Shown: one piece after another, positions 1,255 through 37,436 of the stretch
Layout: each line of letters begins with the position of its first letter
How positions within the stretch are numbered: the stretch's first letter is position 1
From: a virus
Lineage: Duplodnaviria; Heunggongvirae; Uroviricota; Caudoviricetes
Virus record (IMG/VR): IMGVR_UViG_2634166457_000020
Location: 1-39,240 of that record
Strand: one strand, 5' to 3'
Length of the DNA stretch: 39,240 bases
Program-made: the position numbers and the translations under genes
Notes under the pieces: generated by a model
Databases searched by the model: none
What the model was told of the DNA's origin: nothing
What the model saw: the letters and a program-made list of their open reading frames with translations, nothing else

Positions 1255-1449
1255 TTAATTATTCTGCTGATTTTCTTCCATCTCGTCTTCTGCTGCCAGT
1301 GATTCAATTTTATCTGTGAACATTGCTGACAGTGTTGCAAATTCAGCATCAGTGACAGCGGGAATTGGAACAAACCTGATCCCGCTGTGTGCAAGCATGT
1401 TTGCAGTTTCAAGGCATTTCCTTAAATCTGCTGGTGATGCCCTGTTCAT
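1255..1449 (-). CDS. Small acidic hypothetical protein (64 aa, C-terminal EDEMEENQQNN), last gene of cargo operon
   Basis: Internal Met of the 1255..1569 ORF; its ATG (1449..1447) overlaps the methyltransferase stop (1448..1446) as ATGA, indicating translational coupling; no recognisable domain. Confidence 0.4.
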   Translation of the reverse strand: MNRASPADLRKCLETANMLAHSGIRFVPIPAVTDAEFATLSAMFTDKIESLAAEDEMEENQQNN

Positions 1450-2093
1450 GCTGCACGCTCCCGCCCCTGGTTGTCTGTTGGTGACAGCGGAGCATTGCTG
1501 AATGCATTTGTTAATCTGGCAATATCCAACGCGTATCCAGGGTGTAGTTGCACTGCCGGGTCTTCGCACTGATTACCCCAAACATCGAAGCCATGAGACG
1601 ACTGGCGGGCGAACAGTTCAATGCGAGAAACATCGCCTAACAATTGCACAAGTTTTTCACGCACGACATCTGGTTTTCTTGAATGCTCAAGCCGCGGTGC
1701 GGTAAATGACTGAACGATCCCTGCATTAATGCGCGTAGGTAGTTTTCCCTTTACCGCAAACAGGCAATCTTCACTATTGGCGCGAGTCATGTGTCCCATA
1801 CCCATAACCAGTTTATCTGGTTGTCGACTACCACATTTTATCCACGTGAATCCCTTCATGGTCATCAGACGGAATCCCCAGGCTTCAACAACTTTTAGTG
1901 CTTCGAGTGGTTGTGTTGGCACCCACCACATTGCCAACAGACAGTTTTCATCGGACAAATCCCACACAGGAAGGCGGCAGATATCCAGCACACTCATAAC
2001 CGGATATTTAAAACCAGCGCCGCGATTACCATCTGCGGCTTTGTCCCGGTATACCCAGGGTGGATCTGCATAGATTAGCGTGTATTTTTTCAT
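1446..2093 (-). CDS. MT-A70 family (beta-class) N6-adenine DNA methyltransferase, 215 aa
   Basis: N-terminal catalytic motif IYADPPWVY (DPPW) characteristic of MT-A70/N6-adenine methyltransferases; start taken at MKKYTLIYADPPW (ATG 2093..2091), which overlaps the upstream gene stop (2092..2090) as ATGA. Confidence 0.8.
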   Translation of the reverse strand: MKKYTLIYADPPWVYRDKAADGNRGAGFKYPVMSVLDICRLPVWDLSDENCLLAMWWVPTQPLEALKVVEAWGFRLMTMKGFTWIKCGSRQPDKLVMGMGHMTRANSEDCLFAVKGKLPTRINAGIVQSFTAPRLEHSRKPDVVREKLVQLLGDVSRIELFARQSSHGFDVWGNQCEDPAVQLHPGYALDIARLTNAFSNAPLSPTDNQGRERAA

Positions 2094-3193
2094 TGTTCTG
2101 CTCCCAGACTTCCTTTGGTAAAAGCTTGTATCAGCCTGTTTGCTGCCGCTTTCTGTGCTGCTACATTGGCAATAACTGATAGTTTTTCCTGGCTTGCTTT
2201 CGTGCAGATCCCAACCCAATTATCCATTAGGAAAAAATTCTCTCTTTCTGCGAAGTCAGTATTTGCACATAATGTTTCAATCATTGAAATTATTTCTTTT
2301 ATTGAGTGATTAACCATCATTTGCTGAACAGCATAACCAAAAGCGTTAATCATCACTGCATGAAACTGGATATATTCTCTTTTGTATTCTGATTGCTTTG
2401 TACCATGGCGAATTGCTTCTAGTTGTGTAAGACATAACCATGATTCCCATACTGACTCGATGTTACCAATTTCTAGTTTTTTTCCATTATGAATACAAAA
2501 TTTTGATGTTGAATCACTTAATGCTTTGAAACTCACCCACATGTTTGACTTTGACGGAACAACGTTGTGCTCGAAGTCAGTGACTTCTGCAAAAGTGTCA
2601 TGTTGCGACAGGAAAGACACCATTTCTTGGGCAACATCGTTTCGTCCGTCATACGCCATATTAATTGCTGCAGATGGTTTTGAAACATTATTATTAATGT
2701 CAGAAAAGAACTGCTGACGCGCCTTCAAAGGAAGGTTATGCGTAAGTATAAGAGGAATCATAATTGTTTCACCATAATTACGGCAGAACTCAGCTAATCC
2801 TGCAGCACGATGCTGTCCATCAAATAATTTTATTTCTGCATCCATAGGAAATCTAGCTAAACCGACATTAGTATTTCCAATCTCATGGAACTCTATTTCT
2901 GAGTTACAATTTCCGACCAATGGTGGAACAATAAATGGTTCCTTTTTCTCGTAAGCGTTGACTAAATATTGATAAAACTTTTTTACCCTGGTTGGATTAA
3001 TTTCACGTTGAGAACGTTCAAGGGTACTTCCCGTATTGTCGGTTGCCAATACTCTCGATAGTGCTCTTGCTGGTACTGTCATCATAAGTATTACAGTGCT
3101 TCCCTGCGTTCCTCGTGATGCGGGAAATTCAAAGAAATAATCGCCTACCTTGCTCATGATATTACCTTTTATATTATTGTTTTGTTTATTCAT
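2090..3193 (-). CDS. DGQHR-domain protein (DndB-like / ParB-like DNA-binding), 367 aa (or 355 aa if start is ATG at 3157)
   Basis: Contains the FDGQHRAAGL motif defining the DGQHR domain family; tight coupling to the downstream methyltransferase. Confidence 0.7.
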   Translation of the reverse strand: MNKQNNNIKGNIMSKVGDYFFEFPASRGTQGSTVILMMTVPARALSRVLATDNTGSTLERSQREINPTRVKKFYQYLVNAYEKKEPFIVPPLVGNCNSEIEFHEIGNTNVGLARFPMDAEIKLFDGQHRAAGLAEFCRNYGETIMIPLILTHNLPLKARQQFFSDINNNVSKPSAAINMAYDGRNDVAQEMVSFLSQHDTFAEVTDFEHNVVPSKSNMWVSFKALSDSTSKFCIHNGKKLEIGNIESVWESWLCLTQLEAIRHGTKQSEYKREYIQFHAVMINAFGYAVQQMMVNHSIKEIISMIETLCANTDFAERENFFLMDNWVGICTKASQEKLSVIANVAAQKAAANRLIQAFTKGSLGAEQ

Positions 3194-4924: not shown

Positions 4925-5824
4925 TTACTTCATTCTGAAGACGCGTTGTGTCGTTGTTGTTTTGAATTTTTCGAATAACTCAGGGTGTACTGACTGGAAT
5001 AGCTTCTGGTCGAATCTGTTGCTGATCTGAGATTTCCATGTGCAGAGCGGCTTTCCGTCCAGGGTCAGGACTGAGTGCTCTTGCATGTACATCTTCAGCT
5101 TCTCTTCTGATATAGCTATTTCTTCTTCCAGTGATTTTCTGCGTGACTTCATGTCTCGTAGATCGTTGAATAGTGCGAGTGCCTTTCCGTCAGCCTCGAT
5201 ACTTGTCCCGGCCTCTTTCTCAAACATCAGCGATACATCGCTTACGCTGGTAGCTTCCGGCGGGTTAAGATTTTTCACTCGGTCCCAGAAAGCGATTTCT
5301 TTTTCTAAGATCGCCTGGATAGTTTCTTCATCACGCTCAACCCGATAGATTCGGAAGTCGTCGCCACCGATAAGCACACCGAAAACGCATACCTGTTTGT
5401 TTGTAACCATCAACCCGTGCATGGCCTGGGCCGTGTAATGCACAGGAATTGCATCTGTCTGGATTTCTCCCCATTCTTTGGCTTTGAACGGACTAACTGT
5501 TTTTATCTCAATGTTCTCGCCTGACGCTGCTTCTGCATCGATCTCAGCTGCAATAAAATCGTAATCACGGTGGATATAGCGGTTTCCGCGATGAACGATT
5601 TCCATCCCTGTTTCCTCAGAAAGCAGGTCTATTACGTATGGCTCCATACGCTGGCCACGCGTGAAAACTTTCTGCTTGCTTGGGTCTACTGGTTTGACAC
5701 GTGGCTGGACCTTATCCAGATAAACCTCAAGCGGGGTGCGCCATGGGCTAATTCCAAGAATCCCTGCAACATCGCTTCCTCCGATGTATTTTGTTCTATC
5801 CATGATTCCAGCGTTCCGCATCAT
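4925..5824 (-). CDS. YqaJ-like (lambda-exonuclease-like, PD-(D/E)XK) recombination exonuclease, 299 aa
   Basis: N-terminal RTKYIGGSDVAGILGISPWRTPLEVY matches the YqaJ viral recombinase exonuclease pattern; start ATG (5824..5822) overlaps the upstream gene stop (5823..5821) as ATGA. Confidence 0.75.
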   Translation of the reverse strand: MMRNAGIMDRTKYIGGSDVAGILGISPWRTPLEVYLDKVQPRVKPVDPSKQKVFTRGQRMEPYVIDLLSEETGMEIVHRGNRYIHRDYDFIAAEIDAEAASGENIEIKTVSPFKAKEWGEIQTDAIPVHYTAQAMHGLMVTNKQVCVFGVLIGGDDFRIYRVERDEETIQAILEKEIAFWDRVKNLNPPEATSVSDVSLMFEKEAGTSIEADGKALALFNDLRDMKSRRKSLEEEIAISEEKLKMYMQEHSVLTLDGKPLCTWKSQISNRFDQKLFQSVHPELFEKFKTTTTQRVFRMK

Positions 5825-6120
5825 GCCGCGTCCCTCTGCCCATCAAGCTGATCAGCCAGATCCCAGCGGGCGATAATTGCCATTGCCTCGCGCCGGTAGG
5901 CATCCATTAGTTCTTCGAACTCAGGGCTGTCTTTAGCGGCCTCCAGTACTTCCTGGCGAACGCCTTTAACTGTTACAACGTCGAAAGTTGATGCCAGTTG
6001 ATGAAGCCGGATACTCTCAATCAGTTCAACTTGTCGGTCATATAGCTGTTCTGACAGGCGGTAGTCCTTGTCGAATGCCAGCATGATTTTTTGAAGATTT
6101 TTCTGCTGATTAACGTTCAT
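5821..6120 (-). CDS. Hypothetical early protein (about 99 aa, start MNVNQQ)
   Basis: ORF in the leftward early operon; start chosen at second Met because the upstream small ORF stop lies at 6123-6125. Confidence 0.45.
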   Translation of the reverse strand: MNVNQQKNLQKIMLAFDKDYRLSEQLYDRQVELIESIRLHQLASTFDVVTVKGVRQEVLEAAKDSPEFEELMDAYRREAMAIIARWDLADQLDGQRDAA

Positions 6121-6122
6121 TA

Positions 6123-6275
6123 TCAGCCCTCCCATATCTCGTTATCGTTGGCCACATCGCGAGCTTCTTTGCTGACGAAAGCCCACTTAATGCCTTCCTG
6201 TAAGGTGCGGAACTTCCAGCTCATGAATCCGCATGCAGTAACGCAGTACCAACCGTTGATGATTTTCCACTGCAT
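6123..6275 (-). CDS. Small W/C-rich protein (50 aa, MQWKIINGWYCVTACGF...), first gene of leftward early operon; not in the supplied ORF track
   Basis: Manually translated from the minus strand; GAGG Shine-Dalgarno about 10 nt upstream; directly downstream of operator cluster 6282-6371. Confidence 0.4.
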   Translation of the reverse strand: MQWKIINGWYCVTACGFMSWKFRTLQEGIKWAFVSKEARDVANDNEIWEG

Positions 6276-6281
6276 AACTTG

Positions 6282-6371
6282 TTACCTCGGTCTGTTACCG
6301 TTGAGGTAATAATTATGCGTATCTGGTTTGGTGTCAATAGATATGAGTTAAAAAAATTACCCATTAGGTAA
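6282..6371. promoter_or_regulatory. Leftward operator/promoter cluster (OL-like): TTACC-GTTGA-GGTAA (6295-6309), TTACC-CATTA-GGTAA (6357-6371), extra TTACC half-site 6282-6286
   Basis: Perfect 15-bp inverted repeats between the repressor terminator and the first leftward gene. Confidence 0.6.
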
Positions 6372-6383
6372 TCGAATAGGCAA

Positions 6384-6406
6384 TAAAAAAGCCGCCAGAA
6401 GGCGGC
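6384..6406 (-). terminator. Rho-independent terminator downstream of repressor gene (GCCGCC-AGAA-GGCGGC plus U-tract on minus strand)
   Basis: 6-bp GC stem 6391-6406 preceded on plus strand by A-run 6384-6390. Confidence 0.6.
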
Positions 6407-6428
6407 TTACTTACTGAAAAATATGATT

Positions 6429-7013
6429 TTATTGTTTGTTTTTTTCGTTCTGGTTGATGACAAATTCAATGTAACTTTCGATCTTTGCTTTCTCGGTTTC
6501 GGGTAACAATGCGTAGCGCGAGCGATCATAGTTGATGGTCGCAGGGTCGTGCGGGTGAATCAGTAATTCATAGCCGTGACGCCCGAATGCGGATGCAACA
6601 TTCTCCAGGGTGGAAATGGAAACGCTGACCTCATTGTTTAACAGGCGGCTGATTGTCACCTGGGCGACGCCGGATGCGCGGTGAAGTTTTCCCTGAGTTG
6701 AAAGGTCGCGGCTTTCGCTCATCCAGCGTTCCAGGTTGTGAGCCGCCAGCTGACCAATGTCGCTTGGGCCGACAGGCTGAAAACCTTCCTGAGAAAGCGA
6801 GCGATCGATATCAAGCCAGTTACGGGGTTTATTGGCGGCAGCTTCAATTTTTCGCGCAACCTGGTCGCCGATAACCTTCTTGCCAAGAGCCCAGCGGTTT
6901 ACCAGATTTGCCTGAGTTCCAAGTTTTTCTGCCATCCGCGTCTGAACACCATTGAATTCACGGTCGATCAAGTCGTTGAGATTTTGCCTGCGGACGTCCT
7001 GGATACTTTTCAT
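6429..7013 (-). CDS. Phage repressor-like protein with two tandem XRE-type helix-turn-helix domains, 194 aa; no S24 peptidase domain
   Basis: HTH 1 TRMAEKLGTQANLVNRWALGKK; HTH 2 KLHRASGVAQVTISRLLNNEVSVSISTLENVASAFG; located between two operator clusters and divergent from a Cro-like gene. Confidence 0.65.
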   Translation of the reverse strand: MKSIQDVRRQNLNDLIDREFNGVQTRMAEKLGTQANLVNRWALGKKVIGDQVARKIEAAANKPRNWLDIDRSLSQEGFQPVGPSDIGQLAAHNLERWMSESRDLSTQGKLHRASGVAQVTISRLLNNEVSVSISTLENVASAFGRHGYELLIHPHDPATINYDRSRYALLPETEKAKIESYIEFVINQNEKNKQ

Positions 7014-7068
7014 TTTCTGGAAAATCGCCTCATATATGAATCAGTAGATGATTCAATTTAAAGCAATA

Positions 7069-7131
7069 TTACCCAACAGGTAAATGCACCCCATAGGTAA
7101 CTATCCTTGATTTTTGTTACCTTATGGGTGA
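7069..7131. promoter_or_regulatory. Rightward operator/promoter cluster (OR-like), three sites: TTACC-CAACA-GGTAA (7069-7083), GCACC-CCATA-GGTAA (7086-7100), TTACC-TTATG-GGTGA (7117-7131)
   Basis: Three adjacent 15-bp palindromic sites in the 154-bp divergent region between repressor start (7013) and Cro-like start (7168); candidate -35 TTGATT at 7105-7110. Confidence 0.65.
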
Positions 7132-7167
7132 ATATTTATTATCTGAAATAAATATCAGGCAATAGCT

Positions 7168-7398
7168 ATGAGCGATAACGGACATTTCGATTTCAAAAAG
7201 CACTGGCTTGCACTTACTCCGGATGAGCGTGAAGCCTTCGCACAGGAAGCCGGAACGACGAGTCACTATATCCAGACTCACTTAACAGGTAAGCGCAAAA
7301 TGCCAGGTAAGGTATTGATGAATGGGCTTTTTAAAGCCTGTAAAACAAGACAATGGCTGCGCTCAAAAGCAGAACTGGCATACTTCTTCTACTCATGA
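7168..7398 (+). CDS. Cro-like small DNA-binding regulator (YdaS-like), 76 aa
   Basis: Small protein divergent from the repressor with an HTH-like segment (EREAFAQEAGTTSHYIQTHLTGKRK). Confidence 0.55.
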   Translation: MSDNGHFDFKKHWLALTPDEREAFAQEAGTTSHYIQTHLTGKRKMPGKVLMNGLFKACKTRQWLRSKAELAYFFYS

Positions 7399-7420
7399 TA
7401 TCCAGCCACAACCCTCTGTA

Positions 7421-7442
7421 GACCGCCATCCGGCGGTCTTTT
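7421..7442 (+). terminator. Rho-independent terminator after Cro-like gene (GACCGCC-ATCC-GGCGGTC plus TTTT)
   Basis: 7-bp GC-rich stem followed by T-run. Confidence 0.6.
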
Positions 7443-7512
7443 CATATCTATTCGCACCTTAAAGGTAATAAAAAACCAAATCTGGTTGATCTTTTTTTTG
7501 TGTCAGCACAAA

Positions 7513-7749
7513 ATGACCGTAATCCCAATACTAATAACAGGGCTTACCATGGAAATCATTACACGTATTGATGCCGCAAAGCGCGGACTTAAACGCTACT
7601 ACACCGGAAAACCATGTAAGCACGGACATGACAGTGAACGCTGGGTTTACAACGGACACTGTGTTGAGTGCACCATGGAATCAAACCGTCGTATCAGGGC
7701 AGAGATTAAGCAGATCATGATTAATTCCTCCCCACAACATTCAAGCTGA
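7513..7749 (+). CDS. Small Cys/His-rich (zinc-finger-like) protein at the cII position; start uncertain (7486 TTG, 7513 ATG or 7549 ATG)
   Basis: Motif CKHGHDSERWVYNGHCVEC; preceded by a GCACC-TTAAA-GGTAA site at 7454-7468. Confidence 0.4.
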   Translation: MTVIPILITGLTMEIITRIDAAKRGLKRYYTGKPCKHGHDSERWVYNGHCVECTMESNRRIRAEIKQIMINSSPQHSS

Positions 7750-7764
7750 TAGCGGAGATTAATC

Positions 7765-8580
7765 ATGAGCAGACATGCAACAGATTGGGCCTGGGAGACA
7801 GATCCAGGTAGCTCGTCATTAAAGCTCATACTGCTCTCGATGGCTGACAGAGCCGATGAATATAACCTCTGCTACCCCAGCATAGAACGCCTCGTTAAAG
7901 ACACTTGCCTGAATAAAAAAACCGTGCAGGCCGGACTTATATCGCTCATGAAAATGGGGCTTATTTCAGATACCGGAGAGAGAAAGGGGGCGACGAAAAG
8001 AGTGCGGGTTTTCTCTCTTAATATAACCAAAAAAGGGAACATTAAAGGCAACCTGGAAGGGTGTAATGAACCCGAAAACGGTAATGTTCCCGAAAACGGG
8101 AATATACCCAAAAACGGGATGTTGAATGATCCCAAAAACGGGATGTTGAATGATCCCAAAAACGGGATCCAGAACCAGTCATATAACCAGTCATTTAACC
8201 AAGAGAGGGAGAGCAGGACAAAAAGCGGGGATTCTGTGCCTCATGACCCCGGCGCAAACAACGCCGTGATGAATAACTTTGTTCCTCCTGGTGGGCCAGG
8301 GCAATTAGGCAAATTTGTCATGCATGAACAATGGCAACCATCAGATGACTTTCTTCGGAAAAGCTCATTGCAGGGGATCTACCTGGACAGTCTGCCAACG
8401 GCACAGGAACTTGCAGAGTTCAGAATTTACTGGATGGCTGAGGGTAAGGCATACCATCAGGCACAGTGGGAGCAGAAGCTGGCAAGGAGGCTGCAGATTA
8501 GCAGACAGAAGCAATCAACATTACCTGATAACAACGTTCCGCACTGGAACAGCCCTGAAGCATGGGAGGATTTCTTGTGA
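7765..8580 (+). CDS. Replication initiator, lambda O-like, 271 aa, with repetitive NG-rich linker
   Basis: N-terminal winged-helix-like region, internal repetitive linker encoded by iterons, position immediately upstream of a lambda P homologue. Confidence 0.65.
   Translation: MSRHATDWAWETDPGSSSLKLILLSMADRADEYNLCYPSIERLVKDTCLNKKTVQAGLISLMKMGLISDTGERKGATKRVRVFSLNITKKGNIKGNLEGCNEPENGNVPENGNIPKNGMLNDPKNGMLNDPKNGIQNQSYNQSFNQERESRTKSGDSVPHDPGANNAVMNNFVPPGGPGQLGKFVMHEQWQPSDDFLRKSSLQGIYLDSLPTAQELAEFRIYWMAEGKAYHQAQWEQKLARRLQISRQKQSTLPDNNVPHWNSPEAWEDFL
8071..8196. repeat. Five direct iterons CCC(G/A)AAAACGG(G) at 8071, 8089, 8107, 8131, 8155 plus two AACCAGTCAT repeats; candidate origin of replication inside the O-like gene
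   Basis: Direct repeats at 18-24 bp spacing, including an exact 24-bp tandem duplication (8107-8130 / 8131-8154), followed by a moderately AT-rich segment. Confidence 0.55.
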
Positions 8581-9362: not shown

Positions 9363-9479
9363 TACCAGCGCGATAGCGCATTTTTTTACGTCTACATAAT
9401 TACCTGTTAGGTAATAAAATGTTCTAAAATCTATTGATTTCGTGTCTTATGTGGTTTTTAATTACCTCAGGGGTAAATC

Positions 9480-9824
9480 ATGAGAAAACAGATGCAGGCT
9501 CTTGGTCGACTCAAAACAGGACAGATGAACAAAACAGAATCTGCGTATTGCCAGCACCTTGAGCAGCGTAAACGTGCAGGGGAAATCGCCTGGTATCGAT
9601 TCGAGGGTATCAAGCTGCGGTTAGCTGATAACACGTTCTATACGCCCGATTTTGCTGTGATGCTCGCCACCGGCGAGATGGAACTGCACGAAGTGAAAGG
9701 TTTCTGGACCGACGACGCCAGGGTGAAAACCAAAGTCGCCGCAGATCAGTATCCGTTCCGAATCATCGGGGTAACGGTTAAACCAAAGAAAGCAGGTGGT
9801 GGCTGGAACATCGAAGAGTTCTGA
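9480..9824 (+). CDS. Hypothetical phage protein, possibly PD-(D/E)XK nuclease-like (DUF1064-like), 114 aa
   Basis: Motifs TPDF ... ELHEVKG suggest a D-(E)xK active site arrangement; low certainty. Confidence 0.45.
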   Translation: MRKQMQALGRLKTGQMNKTESAYCQHLEQRKRAGEIAWYRFEGIKLRLADNTFYTPDFAVMLATGEMELHEVKGFWTDDARVKTKVAADQYPFRIIGVTVKPKKAGGGWNIEEF

Positions 9825-13063: not shown

Positions 13064-13097
13064 GCATGGTACTATTACCACAACGGTAACTATTACC

Positions 13098-13703
13098 ATG
13101 GTGGTTATGATGCCTGCTGAACCTAAAACCTATAAACGCAAATCAACGCAATTTAAGCCACTAACAGCAATGCAGGAGGCTTATTGCCAGTCATACATCA
13201 AAACGCCTGAAAACCAGACTCAGGCTGCGATTAACGCAGGATTCTCCCCAAATACAGCGGCAGTTAAAGCCAGTGTCATGATGCGCGATGAACGCATTCA
13301 GAAACGGATTGCCGAGTTGATGGAGGAGCGCAACAAACGAATGCGCGTCAGTGCTGATTACGTTCTCATGCGCCTGGTGGAGATCGACCAGATGGACGTG
13401 ATCGACATCCTCAACGACGATGGGAGCCTTAAACCAATCCGTGAGTGGCCGAAAATCTGGCGCACTACGCTTAGTGGCTTTGATCTGTCGTCGACCATCA
13501 TGAACATGAACGAGGATTCGATAGAGACAATCCTCAAAAAAATTAAATGGCCTGACAAGGTGAAGAACCTTGAGCTGATTGGTAAGCATGTTGATGTCAA
13601 CGCGTTCAAAGAACGTCTGGATGTTAATGTGAATGTGACAATTGCTGATCGCATAGCAGCAGCCAGGAAGCGACTCAAAGAACGTCAGGATGGTAATCAG
13701 TGA
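13098..13703 (+). CDS. Terminase small subunit, about 201 aa; start uncertain (13098, 13107 or 13110)
   Basis: Sequence YCQSYIKTPENQTQAAINAGFSPNTAAVKASVMMRDERIQKRIAEL resembles the HTH-type terminase small subunit family; stop overlaps the large subunit start (GTGA). Confidence 0.7.
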   Translation: MVVMMPAEPKTYKRKSTQFKPLTAMQEAYCQSYIKTPENQTQAAINAGFSPNTAAVKASVMMRDERIQKRIAELMEERNKRMRVSADYVLMRLVEIDQMDVIDILNDDGSLKPIREWPKIWRTTLSGFDLSSTIMNMNEDSIETILKKIKWPDKVKNLELIGKHVDVNAFKERLDVNVNVTIADRIAAARKRLKERQDGNQ

Positions 13704-15175
13704 CAGATACAGCGTTATCTCCTGAAGAGCAGTTGATCGAGGATATTGCAGGGTTCACTCACGATCCGCTTGGCTATGCCCTCTATGCGTTCCCGTGGGG
13801 GGAAGAAGGGACTGAACTGGCACATGCTACCGGCCCACGTCAGTGGCAGGCTGATGCGTTCCGAGAGATACGTGATCACCTGCAGAATCCAGCGACGCGC
13901 TATCAGCCGCTTATGCTGGCACGCGCTTCTGGTCACGGTATTGGTAAATCCGCATTCATCTCAATGCTGATCAACTGGGGCATGTCCACTTGCGAGGATT
14001 GTAAGGTCGTGGTGACCGCCAACACCGACAACCAGCTACGAACGAAGACCTGGCCGGAAATTATCAAGTGGTCGAACCTTGCTATCACGAAAGACTGGTT
14101 TACCTGTACCGCTACCGCGATGTACAGCAATGATCCTGGGCACGACAAGCGGTGGCGAGCTGACGCAATCCCCTGGTCTGAGCACAACACTGAGGCATTC
14201 GCCGGACTACACAACGAGCGCAAACGCATCATCGTGGTATTCGATGAAGCGTCGAACATTGCGGATCTGGTGTGGGAAGTTGCTGAGGGTGCGCTTACGG
14301 ACGAAGACACTGAGATTATCTGGGTGGCGTTCGGAAACCCTACACGTAACACCGGGCGTTTCCGCGAATGTTTCCGCAAATATAAACACCGCTGGAAAAC
14401 TGCGCAGATTGACAGCCGGACGGTGGAAGGCACTAACAAACAGCAGTTGCAGAAATGGGTTGATGACTACGGGGAAGACAGCGACTTCGTTAAAATCCGT
14501 GTGCGCGGCATATTCCCGGATGCATCTGAATTGCAGTTTATCCCTACCGGACTTACTGACGAGGCAATGAAACGGGTGGTCACCGCTGCGCAGGTTGCAC
14601 ATGCTCCGGTGATAATCGGCGTTGACCCGGCATACTCAGGCGTTGATGACGCTGTGATATACCTGCGGCAGGGGCTGCACAGTAAGGTGCTGTGGACTGG
14701 CAACAAGACCACTGACGATCTGATTATGGCGAAGCGTATCGCTGACTTTGAAGACCAGTACCAGGCTGACGCAGTGTTCATCGACTTCGGTTACGGAACT
14801 GGTCTGAAGTCAATCGGTGACGGCTGGGGTCGTACATGGCAACTTGTTCCGTTCGGTGGCGCGTCTACTGACCCGCAGATGCTCAACAAGCGTGGGGAGA
14901 TGTTCAACTCATGTAAGACATGGCTGAGGCTGGGCGGCATGCTGGATGACCAGGAAACTGCAGACGACCTGTCGGCGGCAGAGTACAAAGTTCGAGTGGA
15001 CGGTAAAATCGTTATCGAACCGAAGGAAGATATCAAAGAGCGACTTGGGCGTTCGCCGGGTAAAGGCGATGCGCTGCTGCTGACGTTTGCTTTCCCGGTG
15101 TCGAAGCGCCTGCGACTTCCCGGGCAGCAGAACCAGCAAGGCAAGGCGCTTACCGAGTACGATCCATATGCTTAG
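13700..15175 (+). CDS. Terminase large subunit, 491 aa
   Basis: Walker A-like LARASGHGIGKSAF, Walker B-like IIVVFDEASNI, C-terminal nuclease-like region; typical size and position. Confidence 0.9.
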   Translation: MTDTALSPEEQLIEDIAGFTHDPLGYALYAFPWGEEGTELAHATGPRQWQADAFREIRDHLQNPATRYQPLMLARASGHGIGKSAFISMLINWGMSTCEDCKVVVTANTDNQLRTKTWPEIIKWSNLAITKDWFTCTATAMYSNDPGHDKRWRADAIPWSEHNTEAFAGLHNERKRIIVVFDEASNIADLVWEVAEGALTDEDTEIIWVAFGNPTRNTGRFRECFRKYKHRWKTAQIDSRTVEGTNKQQLQKWVDDYGEDSDFVKIRVRGIFPDASELQFIPTGLTDEAMKRVVTAAQVAHAPVIIGVDPAYSGVDDAVIYLRQGLHSKVLWTGNKTTDDLIMAKRIADFEDQYQADAVFIDFGYGTGLKSIGDGWGRTWQLVPFGGASTDPQMLNKRGEMFNSCKTWLRLGGMLDDQETADDLSAAEYKVRVDGKIVIEPKEDIKERLGRSPGKGDALLLTFAFPVSKRLRLPGQQNQQGKALTEYDPYA

Positions 15176-15768
15176 TCTTTATTTTTATCCTCGAAACCTG
15201 ATAATCCAGATAGAACACCAAAGTTATTAAAAACGTCTGGCTTACCAGATTTTAATCCGGATAAGTTGTGTTGCTCCAAAAAGTTGCTAATTGTTTGGCC
15301 GTTGCCAAGTGCAAGACTTTTTATTTGAGATTTTTCAGGGTATTTGAGTTTGTATTCGTCGAAATCATTTTGGAGGGTCTTATATGCCTCATTCATTCTT
15401 CCCAGAGTTTCCGATATCTCTTTTAATGAATGATTTAGAGCTGCTAACTGAGCACTGGCGGATCTCAATTCGTCATCTTTAGCTTTCAACTCGGCAGTCA
15501 ATTCCCCCATACTATTCTTTGATCGAATAATCTCTTCTTTCATCTCTTGGATGTCTTTTTCCGCGCCAGTCTTAACTTTGTCGTATGTAACATCTTTTTT
15601 AGCCAATAACCTCTGCAGTCTGGTTTCACGCTGGATTTTTCTTGCCTTCAGGTGATTATCGATTGAGTCATTATTATCAAGAGGCTTTGCTTGCCATACG
15701 TTAATGATATTGTTTACCCATGGTAATAGGCAGCAGATAGCAATTACAGATAAGCATGGATAAAACAT
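15172..15768 (-). CDS. Moron-encoded membrane-anchored coiled-coil protein, 198 aa
   Basis: N-terminal hydrophobic anchor LSVIAICCLLPW then long K/E-rich heptad-like region; AT-rich, antisense to the late operon; stop overlaps terminase stop (TTAG). Confidence 0.55.
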   Translation of the reverse strand: MFYPCLSVIAICCLLPWVNNIINVWQAKPLDNNDSIDNHLKARKIQRETRLQRLLAKKDVTYDKVKTGAEKDIQEMKEEIIRSKNSMGELTAELKAKDDELRSASAQLAALNHSLKEISETLGRMNEAYKTLQNDFDEYKLKYPEKSQIKSLALGNGQTISNFLEQHNLSGLKSGKPDVFNNFGVLSGLSGFEDKNKD

Positions 15769-15990: not shown

Positions 15991-16025
15991 GATTATACCT
16001 TTAAGGTAATTTGCGGTCATCAAGC

Positions 16026-16049: not shown

Positions 16050-16212
16050 GAACTGGAAGCAATGAGTTATGCCTTCCGTGGCTGTACTGGTTTACAGCAT
16101 GAAGTCATCGCAATGGCGTCCTGCTGTAAAAAGGGCGGTGATAGTCCTTCAAGGGAAACCATCACCGCCAAGCCCCTGGAACTTCTGGCATCACGGTCCT
16201 TAGGCGTGATTC

Positions 16213-16289
16213 TGGCGTGGCATGCAGGATTCGAACCTGCGACCAACCGCTTAGAAGGCGGTTGCTCTGTCCAACTGAGCTAATGCCAC
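16213..16289 (-). tRNA. tRNA-Arg (anticodon UCU, reads AGA), 77 nt including encoded CCA
   Basis: Manually folded cloverleaf: acceptor GUGGCAU/AUGCCAC, D-stem GCUC/GAGC, anticodon stem ACCGC/GCGGU with loop CUUCUAA, T-stem GCAGG/CCUGC with loop UUCGAAU, discriminator G, CCA. Confidence 0.85.
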
Positions 16290-16716
16290 AACGCTGAGAG
16301 CACTTAGCCTGTTAAGGCACCACACTTTGTCGCGGCTCCATAAATGCTCTCATCGTTGTACCCTCGTCTCTTCCGAGGCGTCACACCGAATCGCCGGGAT
16401 GGTGAATCCCCGTGCGCGGAATAAAACCGCTCGACTTGCACATTCCGGCTACCTGGTTCGTTTGCCCGAGCAAGGGAGGGTGCCCCTTAAACGTATCCAG
16501 ACCGCTATCGTCGCATGTGCCATACGCCGTACTGCTCAAAATAAAAGCTCACTCCACCTGTTCAATTTAACGACAAGCCAGTCAGGTTAGTAACCGGAAT
16601 GAACCCTTTAGTTACCTGAAGGGTAATAATTCGCGCGTTAAATGTCAACTGTCTACGATAAATAAATCATATGTGGTTAAATTGGTAATGATTTAATTGC
16701 GTACGGAGTCATTGAT

Positions 16717-20609: not shown

Positions 20610-20660
20610 CGCCTGTTATTAACCTGTGGGCCGTAACAGACCCACTAATGGAGAAAGAAG

Positions 20661-32872: not shown

Positions 32873-32897
32873 GGCCGCTTTCGCGGCCTTTAATTTT
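32873..32897 (+). terminator. Rho-independent terminator ending the late structural operon (GGCCGC-TTTC-GCGGCC plus TTTAATTTT)
   Basis: 6-bp GC stem followed by T-rich tract; lies between convergent genes. Confidence 0.65.
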
Positions 32898-33153
32898 ACC
32901 GGATTTGTTTTCGTAATTGTTCGGCACAATAGTCGAGATGCGTTTGCAGATCCCGCATAGACATCTGTGAGTTGGTTACGTAGTTGATCAGTGCAGTCAG
33001 TTCGGCAAGTGGGCCATCGACATTGAATCCATCTTTATCGAGATCCCGGAGTAATTTCATCAAGTGCGATCCCTCCACTAGTGATCTGACGCCTCCAGGT
33101 GTGTGAATCCTTTCGGTAAATCCGTCTTCCAGTGGATAGTGATACTGCTGCAT
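32896..33153 (-). CDS. Hypothetical antisense small protein, about 85 aa (start MQQYHYPLEDGF)
   Basis: Internal Met of ORF 32896..33387 chosen because the upstream part overlaps the tailspike promoter region and the ATG at 33153 has a GGAGAAG SD. Confidence 0.35.
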   Translation of the reverse strand: MQQYHYPLEDGFTERIHTPGGVRSLVEGSHLMKLLRDLDKDGFNVDGPLAELTALINYVTNSQMSMRDLQTHLDYCAEQLRKQIR

Positions 33154-33349
33154 CTTATCTTCTCCATGCAATAACTGTATGAATATACAGTACCAAATAA
33201 TTTGTTTGCTATCCAGCACGTTTTGTAAATCACCTGAAAGGTAATATCTGTTCGTATCGATGATGTTTCTATCCCATATATGGTTTTTAAGGTAATAAAA
33301 TGGCCGGATATGCGGCGCAACGGGTGCTGCGACTATCTGGAGATTTAAC

Positions 33350-36106
33350 ATGACGGTCTCAACCGAAGTTGACCACAACGAATACATTGGTAACGGTGTT
33401 ACAACGACATTCCCTTATACATTCAGGATTTTCCAGAGATCAGATCTGGTAGTACATGTGGTTGACCTTGATGAAAATATCGCTGTGCTGGCGCTTGATA
33501 CTGATTACACAGTTACCGGGGCTGGTGGATACAACGGTGGTAATGTGATATTGACTACGGCACTGGCCAGCGGATACCAGATTTCCATATCGCGAGAACT
33601 CCCGGTTACGCAGGAAACTGATCTGCGCAATCAAGGGAAGTTCTTTGCTGAGGTGCATGAGGATGCATTTGATAAGCTAACGATGTTGATTCAGCAGGTT
33701 AGAAGTTGGTTTAGCCTAGCGCTGCGCAAACCGTCATTCGTGGCAAGCTATTACGATGCTTTAAATAATTACATCAGAAATTTGCGTGATCCACTACATC
33801 CACAGGATGCAGCCACTAAAAACTATGCTGACTCATTAAATGCTGAAAATACATCACATACAGATTTGTTATTTAGTAGAACTTTGCGTACAGCAGAAGG
33901 TATTCCACAATTACCATCTGCAGAGTTCCGCAAAAATAAAATTGTTGGTATGGATAATGACGGTAACCCGATCATGTTGTTACCGGAATCTGGTTCTGCC
34001 TCTGATGTTCTGCTGGAGTTGGCAAAACCAACTGGTGCCAGTTATATCGGTACGAAGTATGGTAGTCTTGATGAGTACATAGACAATACTCCAAGCCTGT
34101 TAGCCACAAAGTATATGGATGAAATTGAGATGGCAGCACTGGAGTCAGGTGACTTGTCAGTAAACCATCAGCCAAAGGTCCAGCAGGTAATGGATGAAGC
34201 CCATAACAGGAAATGCTCAGTGTATTTCCCGCCAGGTACATACTGCTTTGATACCGCTGTTAACGTCTGGTCTTACGTCCGTTCTGTTTGGGGTGACGGT
34301 AGTGCAATTATTACTCGTCGGTATCGCACGTTTTTTGTTGATGGCTCAACGACAGATATTGATCCGGCGCGTGATACACGTAAATTATTCCGATTGTTAA
34401 ATGGGGCATTGGGGTATATATCAGTGCATGGTATTACGTTTGATGGTAATGCCAGATCTATCGAGGTGTCGGAATCCGGTACGAGCGGTACGACAGGAAT
34501 TCCAGACCAAACATATTATCAGGACCTGGAGCCTGGTGGCACCTCTCCTTATGTCCATGGGCCTGATGGTAACATCCCTGTTCATGGGGAAAGCTATTAC
34601 AACCACGCAAAGAAACTGTCTGGAACAGATGTGTATGATTGTGTGTTTCGTGATGCTCCAGGCGGATGTATTGTTGGTAACTTCAGAAATCTTAGGGTCT
34701 CCTCAAACTCATTTTTGGGTTGGTATGATCACGCAATTTACGCAGCAGGAAGTGCTTTCGCTGATCAGGGTAATGGAATTTTGGTTGGTGATATTACGGT
34801 CACTGGGAATACCTTCAGGAACAGAATAAACACTCGTGGTAATGGGGCTGTTAAAGGAAGGTTTGGTTTTGACCGTTATACAGTTACTGGCAATACATTT
34901 GATGTTGTTGATTATTGTATGGCGTTTGATACTGGTCACGGGATGGTCGGAAGTGTTTACGCCATGCAGCCATGGGGGCAGATCACTGTAACTGGTAATA
35001 CATGCACCTGTGATAGTTATTGGATGATGATAGGTAACAACAGAGGTGTTAAGTGGTTTGATAACGGATGGATGTCTGCTATCAATATTTCTAACAACAC
35101 AGTCCAATCTAAGGATAGGATCCTGTTACTTGGAGTTAGCGGCAGTAATGATTATTTGATGGATGCATATCAAGTAAATATATCCAATAACACTTTTTCT
35201 GCACCTAACTTCTTATCGCTTTACACTCATTTAACTAACTGCGATTGGCGCATAGAAAGTAACAACATAACAATTACTAACACAGGGATGATTATAGGTG
35301 TAGACCAGGCTGAGGTTTCAAACTCAGTTCTTAGGCTTACAAATAATATAATGGGACGTGTATTAACGACCTCTACTGGCAATCTTCATCTCAGCAATTT
35401 CGAGCGCGTTATCATGAAAGGTAATGAGATTCGAAATCTGTCTATGAGTTTTGGTAGCTACGTTACTGACCTAACTATTGAAGGAAATGAATTCAGGTAC
35501 TCTTCTGCACTTCCTTCAAAACCATTTGGCTTTATGTACTCATCTGCTGGCAATGGATTCAACAGAATTAAATTATGTAAAAATAAAATCGTGGGTAGTC
35601 CAATAAGATTTTCCGTGAAATGCTCATCTGATTGTGTTCTTGACATGAGTGATAATAGCATTTACGGAATTACTGATTACTTCCTTGAGTTGAATGCAAC
35701 TGGTTACACTCCTAAAACCATGAGGGTTAACAACAATCTGGTGATAGGTGGTGCGCTAATAGCTGATCTTCCTGCTGGAGTATCTCTTGGTAGCACCTCA
35801 AGTTATATGGAGTTGATGAACAACACCTTACGATCAACTTCTCCAGGGACACAGCAGTCATGTACCATTCTGCGTGATGGAGGCGCTCAATCTTGGCTTA
35901 GCCATTATCAAACTATTCGGTGTGTAAAAAACACATTCCGCGATGTCACTAACATATTGAAAATAGATGGCTCTGCTTCTTCTGGGGTTTCTACAACTAA
36001 TAAGTTCTGGTTCGGCGAGAATCAGACATACAATTCAACGTTGACATGTAACTATCCTTCAATAAACAAGTCAAACACAGATGTCACACAGACTTTAAGT
36101 GTATAG
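33350..36106 (+). CDS. Tailspike/tail fiber protein with conserved N-terminal virion-attachment domain and beta-helix-like repeats, 918 aa
   Basis: N-terminal region EYIGNGVTTTFPYTFRIF typical of tail fiber/tailspike anchor domains; repetitive TVTGNTF-type segments suggest a right-handed beta-helix. Confidence 0.8.
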   Translation: MTVSTEVDHNEYIGNGVTTTFPYTFRIFQRSDLVVHVVDLDENIAVLALDTDYTVTGAGGYNGGNVILTTALASGYQISISRELPVTQETDLRNQGKFFAEVHEDAFDKLTMLIQQVRSWFSLALRKPSFVASYYDALNNYIRNLRDPLHPQDAATKNYADSLNAENTSHTDLLFSRTLRTAEGIPQLPSAEFRKNKIVGMDNDGNPIMLLPESGSASDVLLELAKPTGASYIGTKYGSLDEYIDNTPSLLATKYMDEIEMAALESGDLSVNHQPKVQQVMDEAHNRKCSVYFPPGTYCFDTAVNVWSYVRSVWGDGSAIITRRYRTFFVDGSTTDIDPARDTRKLFRLLNGALGYISVHGITFDGNARSIEVSESGTSGTTGIPDQTYYQDLEPGGTSPYVHGPDGNIPVHGESYYNHAKKLSGTDVYDCVFRDAPGGCIVGNFRNLRVSSNSFLGWYDHAIYAAGSAFADQGNGILVGDITVTGNTFRNRINTRGNGAVKGRFGFDRYTVTGNTFDVVDYCMAFDTGHGMVGSVYAMQPWGQITVTGNTCTCDSYWMMIGNNRGVKWFDNGWMSAINISNNTVQSKDRILLLGVSGSNDYLMDAYQVNISNNTFSAPNFLSLYTHLTNCDWRIESNNITITNTGMIIGVDQAEVSNSVLRLTNNIMGRVLTTSTGNLHLSNFERVIMKGNEIRNLSMSFGSYVTDLTIEGNEFRYSSALPSKPFGFMYSSAGNGFNRIKLCKNKIVGSPIRFSVKCSSDCVLDMSDNSIYGITDYFLELNATGYTPKTMRVNNNLVIGGALIADLPAGVSLGSTSSYMELMNNTLRSTSPGTQQSCTILRDGGAQSWLSHYQTIRCVKNTFRDVTNILKIDGSASSGVSTTNKFWFGENQTYNSTLTCNYPSINKSNTDVTQTLSV

Positions 36107-36107
36107 T

Positions 36108-36136
36108 AAAAAGGCGGCAATGCCGCCTTTGTTTTA
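36108..36136. terminator. Bidirectional rho-independent terminator between tailspike (+) and acyltransferase (-): GGCGGC-AAT-GCCGCC flanked by A-run and T-run
   Basis: 6-bp stem 36113-36127 with AAAAA upstream and TTTGTTTTATTTT downstream. Confidence 0.65.
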
Positions 36137-37252
36137 TTTTATCTTGTATCTTTTTTCAATTTTATTATACAGGATGGCGGAAAGTATAATTGCTAATGTT
36201 ATCGCCCCAAACTGCATCAATATAAAATATCTGGCTGATGTTTGCTCTAGGTTGATAAATTTGCTGTAAGAATTGAATGTAATGTTAAGCGATAACTGAT
36301 GTACTAAATACAAACTGTAACTTATAATACCAATATTCGATATGCTTCTTTTAGAAAAAATAGACGGTCTGGATGCGATAAATGCCATGAAAAATACTGA
36401 TGTCGCGCAGAACATTTCGAATTCATATACTTTAAAATCACCAAAAATCGAATATATAAAGAGCAATGGCATTACGATCCACAAAGCATGTTTCAAATAA
36501 TTATTTGCAGGTTGCTTTATGTACGAAGCAATAAATCCTGTCAGGAAGTATGTCCACATTATTTGTTCGTTCTGATATCCAAGATATATGATTATCAGAG
36601 CTAAAGGTATTAAAGATATTCTTAACGGTTTAATAGCAAATGCACAGGCAAGAAATGGAACTGCTGCATAATATTTCCATTCGTAAGGTAACGTCCATGT
36701 AACAATATTAAGACTCCAGTCCCATATTGATCCGACCCTGATCCCACCCCCCCAGAAACCAAACCCATAAACACTACGAATGACTGTCATTACCTCATCA
36801 ATAGTTTTTATTTGCCCGTATCTCTGGAACATGAAAATTGCAAAAACTATTGTGGAAACAACAACGTATGCAGGAAGTAATCTATAAATCCTTTTCTGGA
36901 AAAAAGAGATATCGAAAATTCCCTTTTTTATAGTAGATGAAAATAAAAAACCTGTTAAGCAAAAGAATATGGATACTCCAAACGCACCCATTTTTTCAAA
37001 TGCGTACGCTGGCTGAATATTCATGTATGGTGATTTTAATCCTATAGCGGCAATTACAGTGTATGAGTGGTTAACGAAAACTAATAGACACGCAACTCCA
37101 CGCAAGCCCTCAAGGCTAAGGTCGTTATGGCTGCCAATTGGCGATATGTCTACAAACTTGTTTAGAACATAGCAAACACATACAGCAAATGTTACAAAAG
37201 AAAATGCATATACTGAATTATGTATACTAAGTAAGGGGAGTAAATTATCCAT
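36134..37252 (-). CDS. Acyltransferase family 3 integral membrane protein (probable O-antigen/surface polysaccharide O-acetyltransferase), 372 aa
   Basis: Motif LEGLRGVACLLVFVNH and many transmembrane segments typical of acyltransferase-3 proteins; AT-rich; adjacent to the tailspike. Confidence 0.75.
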   Translation of the reverse strand: MDNLLPLLSIHNSVYAFSFVTFAVCVCYVLNKFVDISPIGSHNDLSLEGLRGVACLLVFVNHSYTVIAAIGLKSPYMNIQPAYAFEKMGAFGVSIFFCLTGFLFSSTIKKGIFDISFFQKRIYRLLPAYVVVSTIVFAIFMFQRYGQIKTIDEVMTVIRSVYGFGFWGGGIRVGSIWDWSLNIVTWTLPYEWKYYAAVPFLACAFAIKPLRISLIPLALIIIYLGYQNEQIMWTYFLTGFIASYIKQPANNYLKHALWIVMPLLFIYSIFGDFKVYEFEMFCATSVFFMAFIASRPSIFSKRSISNIGIISYSLYLVHQLSLNITFNSYSKFINLEQTSARYFILMQFGAITLAIILSAILYNKIEKRYKIK

Positions 37253-37436
37253 TTAATCCTTGGCTCATTATCTTTAGTTTAATAAACAAAATTTTATTGA
37301 TGAATTTCGCAAGTGTATCACCCAAAAGGTAATTTTGGTAGGAGTTATTCTGGGTAATTCAAATCATATGTGGTTTATTGTGTATGATATGATCACCAAC
37401 TAAGGGGGTCTTTATGCACGGTAACAGGTGGTTTTT

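Follow-up and report, generated by a model that had tools for sequence, protein, structure and literature searches.

Whether a single repressor chain can read both halves of its own operator, and by what route such a repressor is removed upon induction, are the questions raised by the gene at positions 6429-7013 (minus strand) of the window, the stretch of 39,240 nucleotides of viral DNA analysed here. The gene, rep, encodes a lysogeny repressor of 194 residues, and the open reading frame is flanked by OL and OR sites, which agrees with an original prediction that placed the protein between two operator clusters.

Over positions 5800-7800 the DNA is 98-98.7% identical to the Escherichia phages vB_EcoP_PAS61 and phiV10 and their relatives (Uetakevirus), with immunity-region DNA 98% identical to phiV10, vB_EcoP_ZX5 and PAS61. 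The genes run in the order integrase, leftward recombination genes (RecT, exonuclease), immunity region, replication genes, terminase, structural genes, tailspike and lysis cassette, and the same order is found in the PAS61 and epsilon15 records. Judged by its sequence, the window is a temperate podophage of the phiV10/epsilon15 type, genus Uetakevirus. An intrinsic terminator (6389-6408, minus strand), consisting of an 8-pair stem and then a T-run, lies 3' of rep, and the rightward operon opens with a cro-like gene (7168-7398, plus strand) that matches PHROG 35, 'transcriptional repressor', with E=5.6e-13.

Relatives and modules of the repressor

A phmmer search matched residues 1-190 of Rep, the full length, to PDB entry 5d50_A ('Repressor') with E=4e-42 and 42% identity, and residues 89-190 to the 5d4z construct with E=4e-20. 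Foldseek likewise matched the full Rep model to 5d50_A and 5d4z_H. By their titles, these entries contain Rep of Salmonella phage SPC32H, alone and complexed with an antirepressor. The repressors annotated in phiV10, ZX5, PAS61 and others came up in tblastn as 100% identical to Rep, and the rep products of SPC32H and epsilon15 as 42% identical; the epsilon15 record itself carries the remark 'HHpred: 5d50_A Repressor'. PHROG 8 matched Rep with E=4.5e-27, and the PHROG repressor families cover both halves of the protein, including residues 1-76; NCBIfam holds no specific model for Rep or for the antirepressor Ant described below. The protein encoded at 6429-7013 is thus an ordinary repressor of lysogeny, that of an E. 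coli phage of the phiV10/epsilon15 type, and belongs to the SPC32H Rep family.

The two helix-turn-helix (HTH) segments that had been predicted are both present. Pfam HTH_3 matched residues 106-147 (E=1.2e-9), and residues 20-61 gave weaker Cro-like HTH matches (YdaS/DUF739) under the Pfam cut-off. The full-length AF2 model (pLDDT 71) consists of two helical bundles with a disordered linker between them, the first formed by helices 4-19, 24-31, 35-43 and 50-59, the second by helices 85-100, 107-114, 118-125, 133-142 and 147-151; the HTH helices are 24-31/35-43 and 107-114/118-125. The predicted lack of an autocleavage domain was also borne out, as the Pfam scan found no Peptidase_S24 in Rep even at E<=1, and the sequence lacks the dipeptides Ala-Gly and Cys-Gly and has no cysteine at all. 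After the second HTH the chain continues for only some 40 residues.

The N-terminal domain (residues 1-62; 6828-7013, minus strand) is a lambda-cI/Cro-like HTH domain and, by its AF2 model, its conservation and its net charge of +4, the probable operator reader. Modelled by itself it reached a pLDDT of 93.6 and superimposed on the N-domain of 5d50_A with a TM-score of 0.96 and 0.7 A. The next structural matches include the lambda cI-operator complex (1lmb), 434 Cro (2cro) and the SinR DNA-binding domain. It is followed by a flexible linker (residues 63-84; 6762-6827, minus strand), which is the least conserved segment of Rep (mean column identity 0.57) and in which residues 73-83 have a pLDDT below 50.

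The second HTH-fold module (residues 85-153; 6555-6761, minus strand), with a net charge of -1, matched the 5d4z structure, a construct of Rep residues 92-198, with a TMt of 0.76, and both this alignment and the Pfam HTH_3 match point to it as the counterpart of the middle dimerization domain (MDD) of SPC32H Rep. By homology, the second HTH of the original prediction is the MDD of an SPC32H-type Rep. The C-terminal tail (residues 154-194; 6432-6554, minus strand) aligns with the C-terminus of 5d50_A and 5d4z_A and would correspond to the CAD/TetDloop domain for tetramerization and Ant binding. The AF2 model renders the tail as a stretch of low confidence with a short helix and one long helix (172-193), which fits the SPC32H domain because a strand, a short helix and a helix are described for it in PMC9986798. 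The modules of SPC32H Rep are given in that source as an N-terminal DNA-binding domain (DBD), the MDD and a C-terminal CAD with a p53-like TetDloop, of which the CAD tetramerizes and binds Ant.

Between Rep and SPC32H Rep conservation is highest in the N-domain, with 55% identity against 32% for the MDD. Residues Q24, R26, E29, N36, R40 and W41 of the N-domain are invariant in 34 Rep homologues, and the NLVNRW stretch of its helix 3 is invariant across the phages compared as well as in these 34 database homologues. The equivalent MDD helix varies between phages (AQVTISRLL, PATVNRIM, QATVNRIL), and the HTH_3 signature residues Q107, Q118 and R123 of the MDD are conserved in the 34 homologues.

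Operators in the immunity region and along the genome

The Rep operators are 15-bp exact two-fold palindromes of the form TTACC-N5-GGTAA, of which the window contains seven exact copies against 0.03 expected. A motif scan placed three sites to the right of rep. An exact OR3-like operator, TTACCCAACAGGTAA (7069-7083), is closest to the rep start, an OR2-like site with two mismatches lies at 7086-7100, and an OR1-like site with one mismatch (7117-7131) overlaps the -35 element and spacer of a rightward promoter-like site, TTGTTA-17-TATTAT (7114-7142, plus strand), found in a consensus promoter scan. This three-site layout, with spacings of 17 and 30/31 bp, also occurs in SPC32H, Tyrion and BUCT711. 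The exact site at 7069-7083 probably overlaps a putative rep maintenance promoter, which drew no match in the promoter scan. At OL, one exact operator (6295-6309) abuts the -10 element of a leftward promoter-like site, TTGACA-17-AATTAT (6337-6309, minus strand; same scan), and a second exact operator (6357-6371) lies upstream of its -35 element, 62 bp from the first. The OL spacing of 62-63 bp is kept in SPC32H, Tyrion, BUCT711 and epsilon15, and the TTACC/GGTAA half-site is identical in these four phages despite Rep identities of 42-45%.

Outside the immunity region, two exact operators 62 bp apart (9400 and 9462; 9400-9476) flank the promoter-like sequence TTGATT-17-TTTAAT upstream of the gene at 9480, and are syntenic with a pair at 35907/35969 in epsilon15. 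The spacing of 62-63 bp between promoter-flanking operators is common to all five phages, and the 62-bp pairs enclose about 47 bp of promoter DNA. Two adjacent operators (13075 and 13093; 13075-13107), one exact and one with a single mismatch, stand 18 bp apart directly upstream of the small terminase gene and are syntenic with epsilon15 sites at 12 and 30. A further exact operator (16612-16626) precedes the portal gene cluster and is syntenic with the epsilon15 site at 2932, which is annotated there. An operator with one mismatch (33230-33244) lies between ant and the tailspike gene, which diverge from each other; it is kept at the same position in four relatives and is marked in the epsilon15 record AY150271.2 as a 'repressor' protein_bind feature. 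Finally, an exact or near-exact operator was found at 37318, upstream of the lysis cassette. Overall, epsilon15 carries the same motif at syntenic positions, and seven of its sites are already annotated in GenBank as 'repressor' binding sites.

The ant gene and its upstream region

The original prediction expected induction to proceed through an antirepressor or another route and not through autocleavage, and it reported no obvious antirepressor gene in the window. The expectation is supported, and the report is corrected, by an open reading frame at 32896-33153 (minus strand) whose 85-residue product matches PDB 5d50_E, 'Anti-repressor protein', over residues 2-83 with E=1.6e-45. The product, Ant, has 85% identity with the ant product annotated in SPC32H. 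Its gene starts at the ATG at 33153 (minus strand), which is preceded by GGAG at a distance of 9 nt, and has the last tail gene on one side and the divergent tailspike gene on the other, an arrangement also found in SPC32H and epsilon15. No second Ant-like gene was found in the window by tblastn with Ant, and no Bro-N/KilAC antirepressor was found by Pfam in the open reading frames near ant and the other frames tested.

A search for a LexA box upstream of a small open reading frame, which had been named as a check, proved productive. The predicted box, CTGTATGAATATACAG (33175-33190), is an exact CTGT-N8-ACAG with an A/T-rich interior and lies 21 nt upstream of the ant ATG. The box and its distance from the ATG are kept in SPC32H, epsilon15 and Tyrion, and BUCT711 has a variant with one mismatch. 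The Rep operator lies about 40 nt further upstream and is likewise conserved in relatives, so that the layout of operator, LexA box and ant is common to five phages. Matches resembling CTGT-N8-ACAG are not enriched in the window (17 against 14 expected at one mismatch), and the prediction of the box draws on its position and conservation, not on statistics. The consensus promoter scan gave no sigma-70 match for ant. The putative position of its promoter is taken solely from a TGGATA...TACTGT block, which is conserved and overlaps with the LexA box.

Operator recognition and the lysogeny switch

A non-cleavable tetrameric Rep that is controlled by a LexA-regulated Ant very probably forms the switch of this phiV10/epsilon15-type podophage. 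The two-HTH, non-cleavable repressor and LexA-controlled antirepressor of SPC32H were reportedly defined by the genetics of Kim and Ryu in 2013 and the structure of Kim and co-workers in 2016. The SOS-linked lysis-lysogeny switch found here is thus an already known system.

The features of an SPC32H-type Rep that can be examined in sequence were all found, namely homology, an architecture lacking S24, a cognate Ant, a LexA box element and shared operators. The two phages have in common the three-module Rep architecture, the operator motif, the place of ant between tail genes and tailspike, and a LexA box at equal distance from the ATG. They differ in the repressor itself (42% identical overall and 32% in the middle domain), in the host, which is Salmonella for SPC32H and E. 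coli here, and in OL, which has three sites in SPC32H and two in the window. According to PMC9638917, SPC32H Rep binds DNA as a tetramer and only weakly as a dimer, the two DBDs on one palindrome come from different dimers, and a tetrameric Ant binds two Rep dimers and thereby breaks the Rep tetramer. By homology, binding as a tetramer, pairing of N-domains in trans, disassembly by Ant and the lack of cleavage would apply to the Rep of the window as well; its oligomeric state and its contacts with Ant are extrapolated from a homologue of 42% identity (32% in the MDD).

In such a mechanism, the N-terminal HTH of Rep would read the half-sites as pairs of identical domains, and the second HTH-fold module would have lost DNA reading and serve as the dimer interface. 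The C-terminal tail would join dimers into a tetramer, and because the tail assembles dimers in this way, one tetramer would offer two DNA-reading pairs and could occupy two operators at once. Candidates for such double occupancy are the neighbouring OR sites, or else the operators that stand 62 bp apart on either side of the promoter at OL and of the one upstream of 9480. LexA on the box over the ant promoter would keep ant off. DNA damage would remove LexA and allow Ant to be made, an indirect wiring to the SOS response, and Ant would bind the C-terminal part of Rep, break the tetramer and free Rep from the DNA without proteolysis. In phage ZX5, overexpression of the identical repressor abolished free phage and lowered transcripts of the lysis genes (endolysin, holin) by more than 99.9% (PMC9782041). 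A prophage of the phiV10 species increased 21-fold after exposure to microcin Mcc1229 (bioRxiv 10.64898/2026.05.26.727859), which the title of that work classes among the DNA-damaging bacteriocins. In keeping with such a switch, the rep and ant regions are found in almost equal numbers of complete E. coli genomes.

The original prediction had instead proposed that one polypeptide contacts both half-sites, the N-terminal and the second HTH of a single Rep each reading one half of TTACC-N5-GGTAA. One Rep chain does hold two genuine HTH folds, its flexible linker of about 25 residues could span 10 bp, Pfam matches the second HTH more strongly than the first, and the ZX5 authors likewise assigned DNA binding to it. 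However, the seven perfect two-fold palindromes call for two identical reading heads, whereas the recognition helices are unlike (ANLVNRWAL and AQVTISRLL) and the middle module is not basic (-1), as the N-domain is (+4). BLASTP of the N-terminal against the C-terminal half of Rep detected no similarity, and hhalign aligned the HTH motifs only (residues 23-47 with 106-130) at 20% probability, so that an internal duplication is possible but gains no support; with exact palindromes as operators and HTH units of no detectable BLASTP similarity, Rep would fall outside the single-chain two-HTH DNA readers. The middle module of the solved homologue is described as dimerizing, with the tetramer binding DNA through its N-domains and the dimer doing so weakly, and among phages with the same half-site helix 3 of the MDD is variable, whereas helix 3 of the N-domain is invariant. 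In an attempt to detect covariation of Rep domains with operators, every relative fetched was found to use the same half-site; since all relatives share one operator, the argument for the N-domain as the reader is one of conservation and not a proof by covariation. Given the homology to SPC32H Rep over the full length, the palindromic operators and the dissimilar HTHs, reading of both half-sites by one chain is highly improbable.

A second HTH module that dimerizes and in addition makes accessory or non-specific DNA contacts, for example with the DNA between the 62-bp operator pairs, would be in keeping with its XRE fold, in which Q107, Q118 and R123 are conserved in 34 homologues, and with the about 47 bp of promoter DNA that the conserved pairs leave free. 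On the other hand, the module has no net positive charge, the DNA between the operators showed no second conserved motif, and the secondary literature (PMC9986798) gives the module no function but dimerization. Such contacts are therefore very improbable, and the small probability that they keep is owed to the retention of Q107, Q118 and R123 in the MDD. A cryptic RecA-stimulated self-cleavage of Rep, as in lambda CI and LexA, would make the small open reading frame irrelevant, yet it has only the general precedent of lambdoid repressors behind it and nothing was found in its favour. With no S24 match at E<=1, no Ala-Gly or Cys-Gly dipeptide, some 40 residues after the MDD that align with the tetramerization tail of 5d50, and an Ant homologue with a LexA box, this route is given next to no probability.

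Compared with lambda CI and LexA, the tetrameric Rep favoured here shares the N-terminal HTH fold of lambda CI (1lmb, TMq 0.70), a likeness of fold that is confined to the N-domain, and its phage shares three-site OR and multi-site OL clusters and a predicted dependence of induction on the SOS response. In contrast to CI and LexA, Rep has no S24 domain or cleavage site and so stands outside the S24 class, and its SOS input would run through LexA control of ant and not through RecA-stimulated self-cleavage. The logic of Rep/Ant, as compared here by description, is shared by the Gifsy-1/-3 repressors GfoR/GfhR, described by Lemire et al. (2011) as non-cleavable and inactivated by the small antirepressors GfoA/GfhA, whose genes are controlled directly by LexA and lie away from the immunity region. 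The Gifsy proteins are reported in the same work to interact most likely as dimers, not as a two-HTH tetramer. Rco/Rap of the Bacillus plasmid pLS20, as described in PMC9986798, resembles Rep/Ant in its N-terminal HTH DBD, p53-like tetramerization tail and protein antirepressor, but in that description Rco is without the HTH-fold module for dimerization in the middle, and quorum signalling, not LexA, controls its inducer.

A further step, which we regard as possible but somewhat unlikely, is that one Rep tetramer clamps two exact operators 62-63 bp apart around the -35 and -10 elements, in a micro-loop or wrap, and that Rep is also a direct genome-wide repressor that guards its own antirepressor. 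The proposed sites are PL and a third early/middle promoter, upstream of 9480. A spacing of 62-63 bp would suit one tetramer bridging both operators. If true, the micro-loop would explain the trans pairing of N-domains across dimers, and with its further sites in front of the terminase, portal and lysis genes and beside ant, Rep would directly repress genes along the whole genome, including that of its own antirepressor.

The scientific value of identifying the switch in this phage is small, and its practical value lies in an annotation gap that concerns both proteins. The phages phiV10, PAS61 and ZX5, whose repressors are identical to the one in the window, have Ant labelled as a 'hypothetical protein' in their records, as does RefSeq, and Rep is named as a generic HTH protein. 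The ZX5 paper (PMC9782041) put DNA binding on the C-terminal HTH, which is the wrong one, and does not cite the SPC32H work; the 'anti-repressor' that it tested is a different, Bro-N-type protein that is absent from the window. Correct Rep and Ant labels matter for the engineering of phiV10-type reporter and therapeutic phages and for the prediction of SOS-responsive prophages. Of 5426 complete E. coli genomes, 537 contain the rep region and 531 the ant region, which puts the Rep/Ant module in about 10% of them.

Operator pairs and their spacing

The lysogeny repressor Rep has a palindromic operator, and two pairs of exact copies of this site, at 6295-6371 and 9400-9476, each flank sigma-70-like -35 and -10 elements. 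The centre-to-centre distance is exactly 62 bp in both pairs. A spacing of 62-63 bp is also found in SPC32H, Tyrion, BUCT711 and epsilon15. The arrangement suggests that a single Rep tetramer bridges both operators of a pair from the same face of the DNA.

Rep operators at the late gene clusters and beside ant

Rep-operator palindromes were also located directly 5' of the gene clusters for terminase, portal and lysis functions (13075-13107, 16612-16626, 15995-16009 and 37318-37332). These palindromes are syntenic with sites in epsilon15, whose GenBank record carries a "repressor" binding-site annotation covering the terminase and portal sites. Rep may repress late promoters directly. No gene for a Q-like antiterminator was noticed.

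A further operator, with one mismatch, lies at 33230-33244 in the intergenic region shared by the antirepressor gene ant and the divergent tailspike gene. The LexA box of ant follows approximately 40 nt downstream, and the operator is kept in four relatives. Its target may be ant, which would then be doubly locked, or the tailspike gene; it may also act on both. Two more exact CTGT-N8-ACAG matches, at 16082-16097 and 20624-20639, have G/C-rich interiors and are probably due to chance. The former is intergenic and close to a tRNA-Arg gene with anticodon TCT (16213-16289, minus strand), which is situated within a long non-coding stretch that separates the ORF at 15172-15768 from the portal cluster.

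Conservation of the antirepressor

The phiV10, PAS61 and ZX5 records and the RefSeq E. coli genomes give the Ant homologue (32896-33153, minus strand) no annotation beyond "hypothetical protein". Between the E. coli and Salmonella phages Ant is 85% conserved, whereas Rep reaches only 42%, a sequence difference hinting that Ant could cross-react between phages.

Accessory genes

At the cII position, a small ORF (7486-7749, plus strand; PHROG 1081, function unknown) is kept in the immunity regions of relatives, and its product contains a Cys/His-rich segment, CKHGH...HCVEC, which looks like a zinc ribbon. In the interval between the tailspike gene and lysis cassette lies a gene for an Acyl_transf_3 protein (36134-37252, minus strand; E=5e-24), probably a serotype-converting O-antigen acetylase; PAS61 has an annotated O-antigen acetylase at the corresponding place, but on the opposite strand. 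At its distal end, the leftward operon may have a variable cassette for anti-defence or modification (1446-3193, minus strand). Encoded there are a DndB-like protein (2090-3193, minus strand; Pfam DndB, E=2e-46) as well as an MT-A70 methyltransferase (1446-2219, minus strand), whereas PAS61 has a NinI phosphatase and an adenine methylase at that place.
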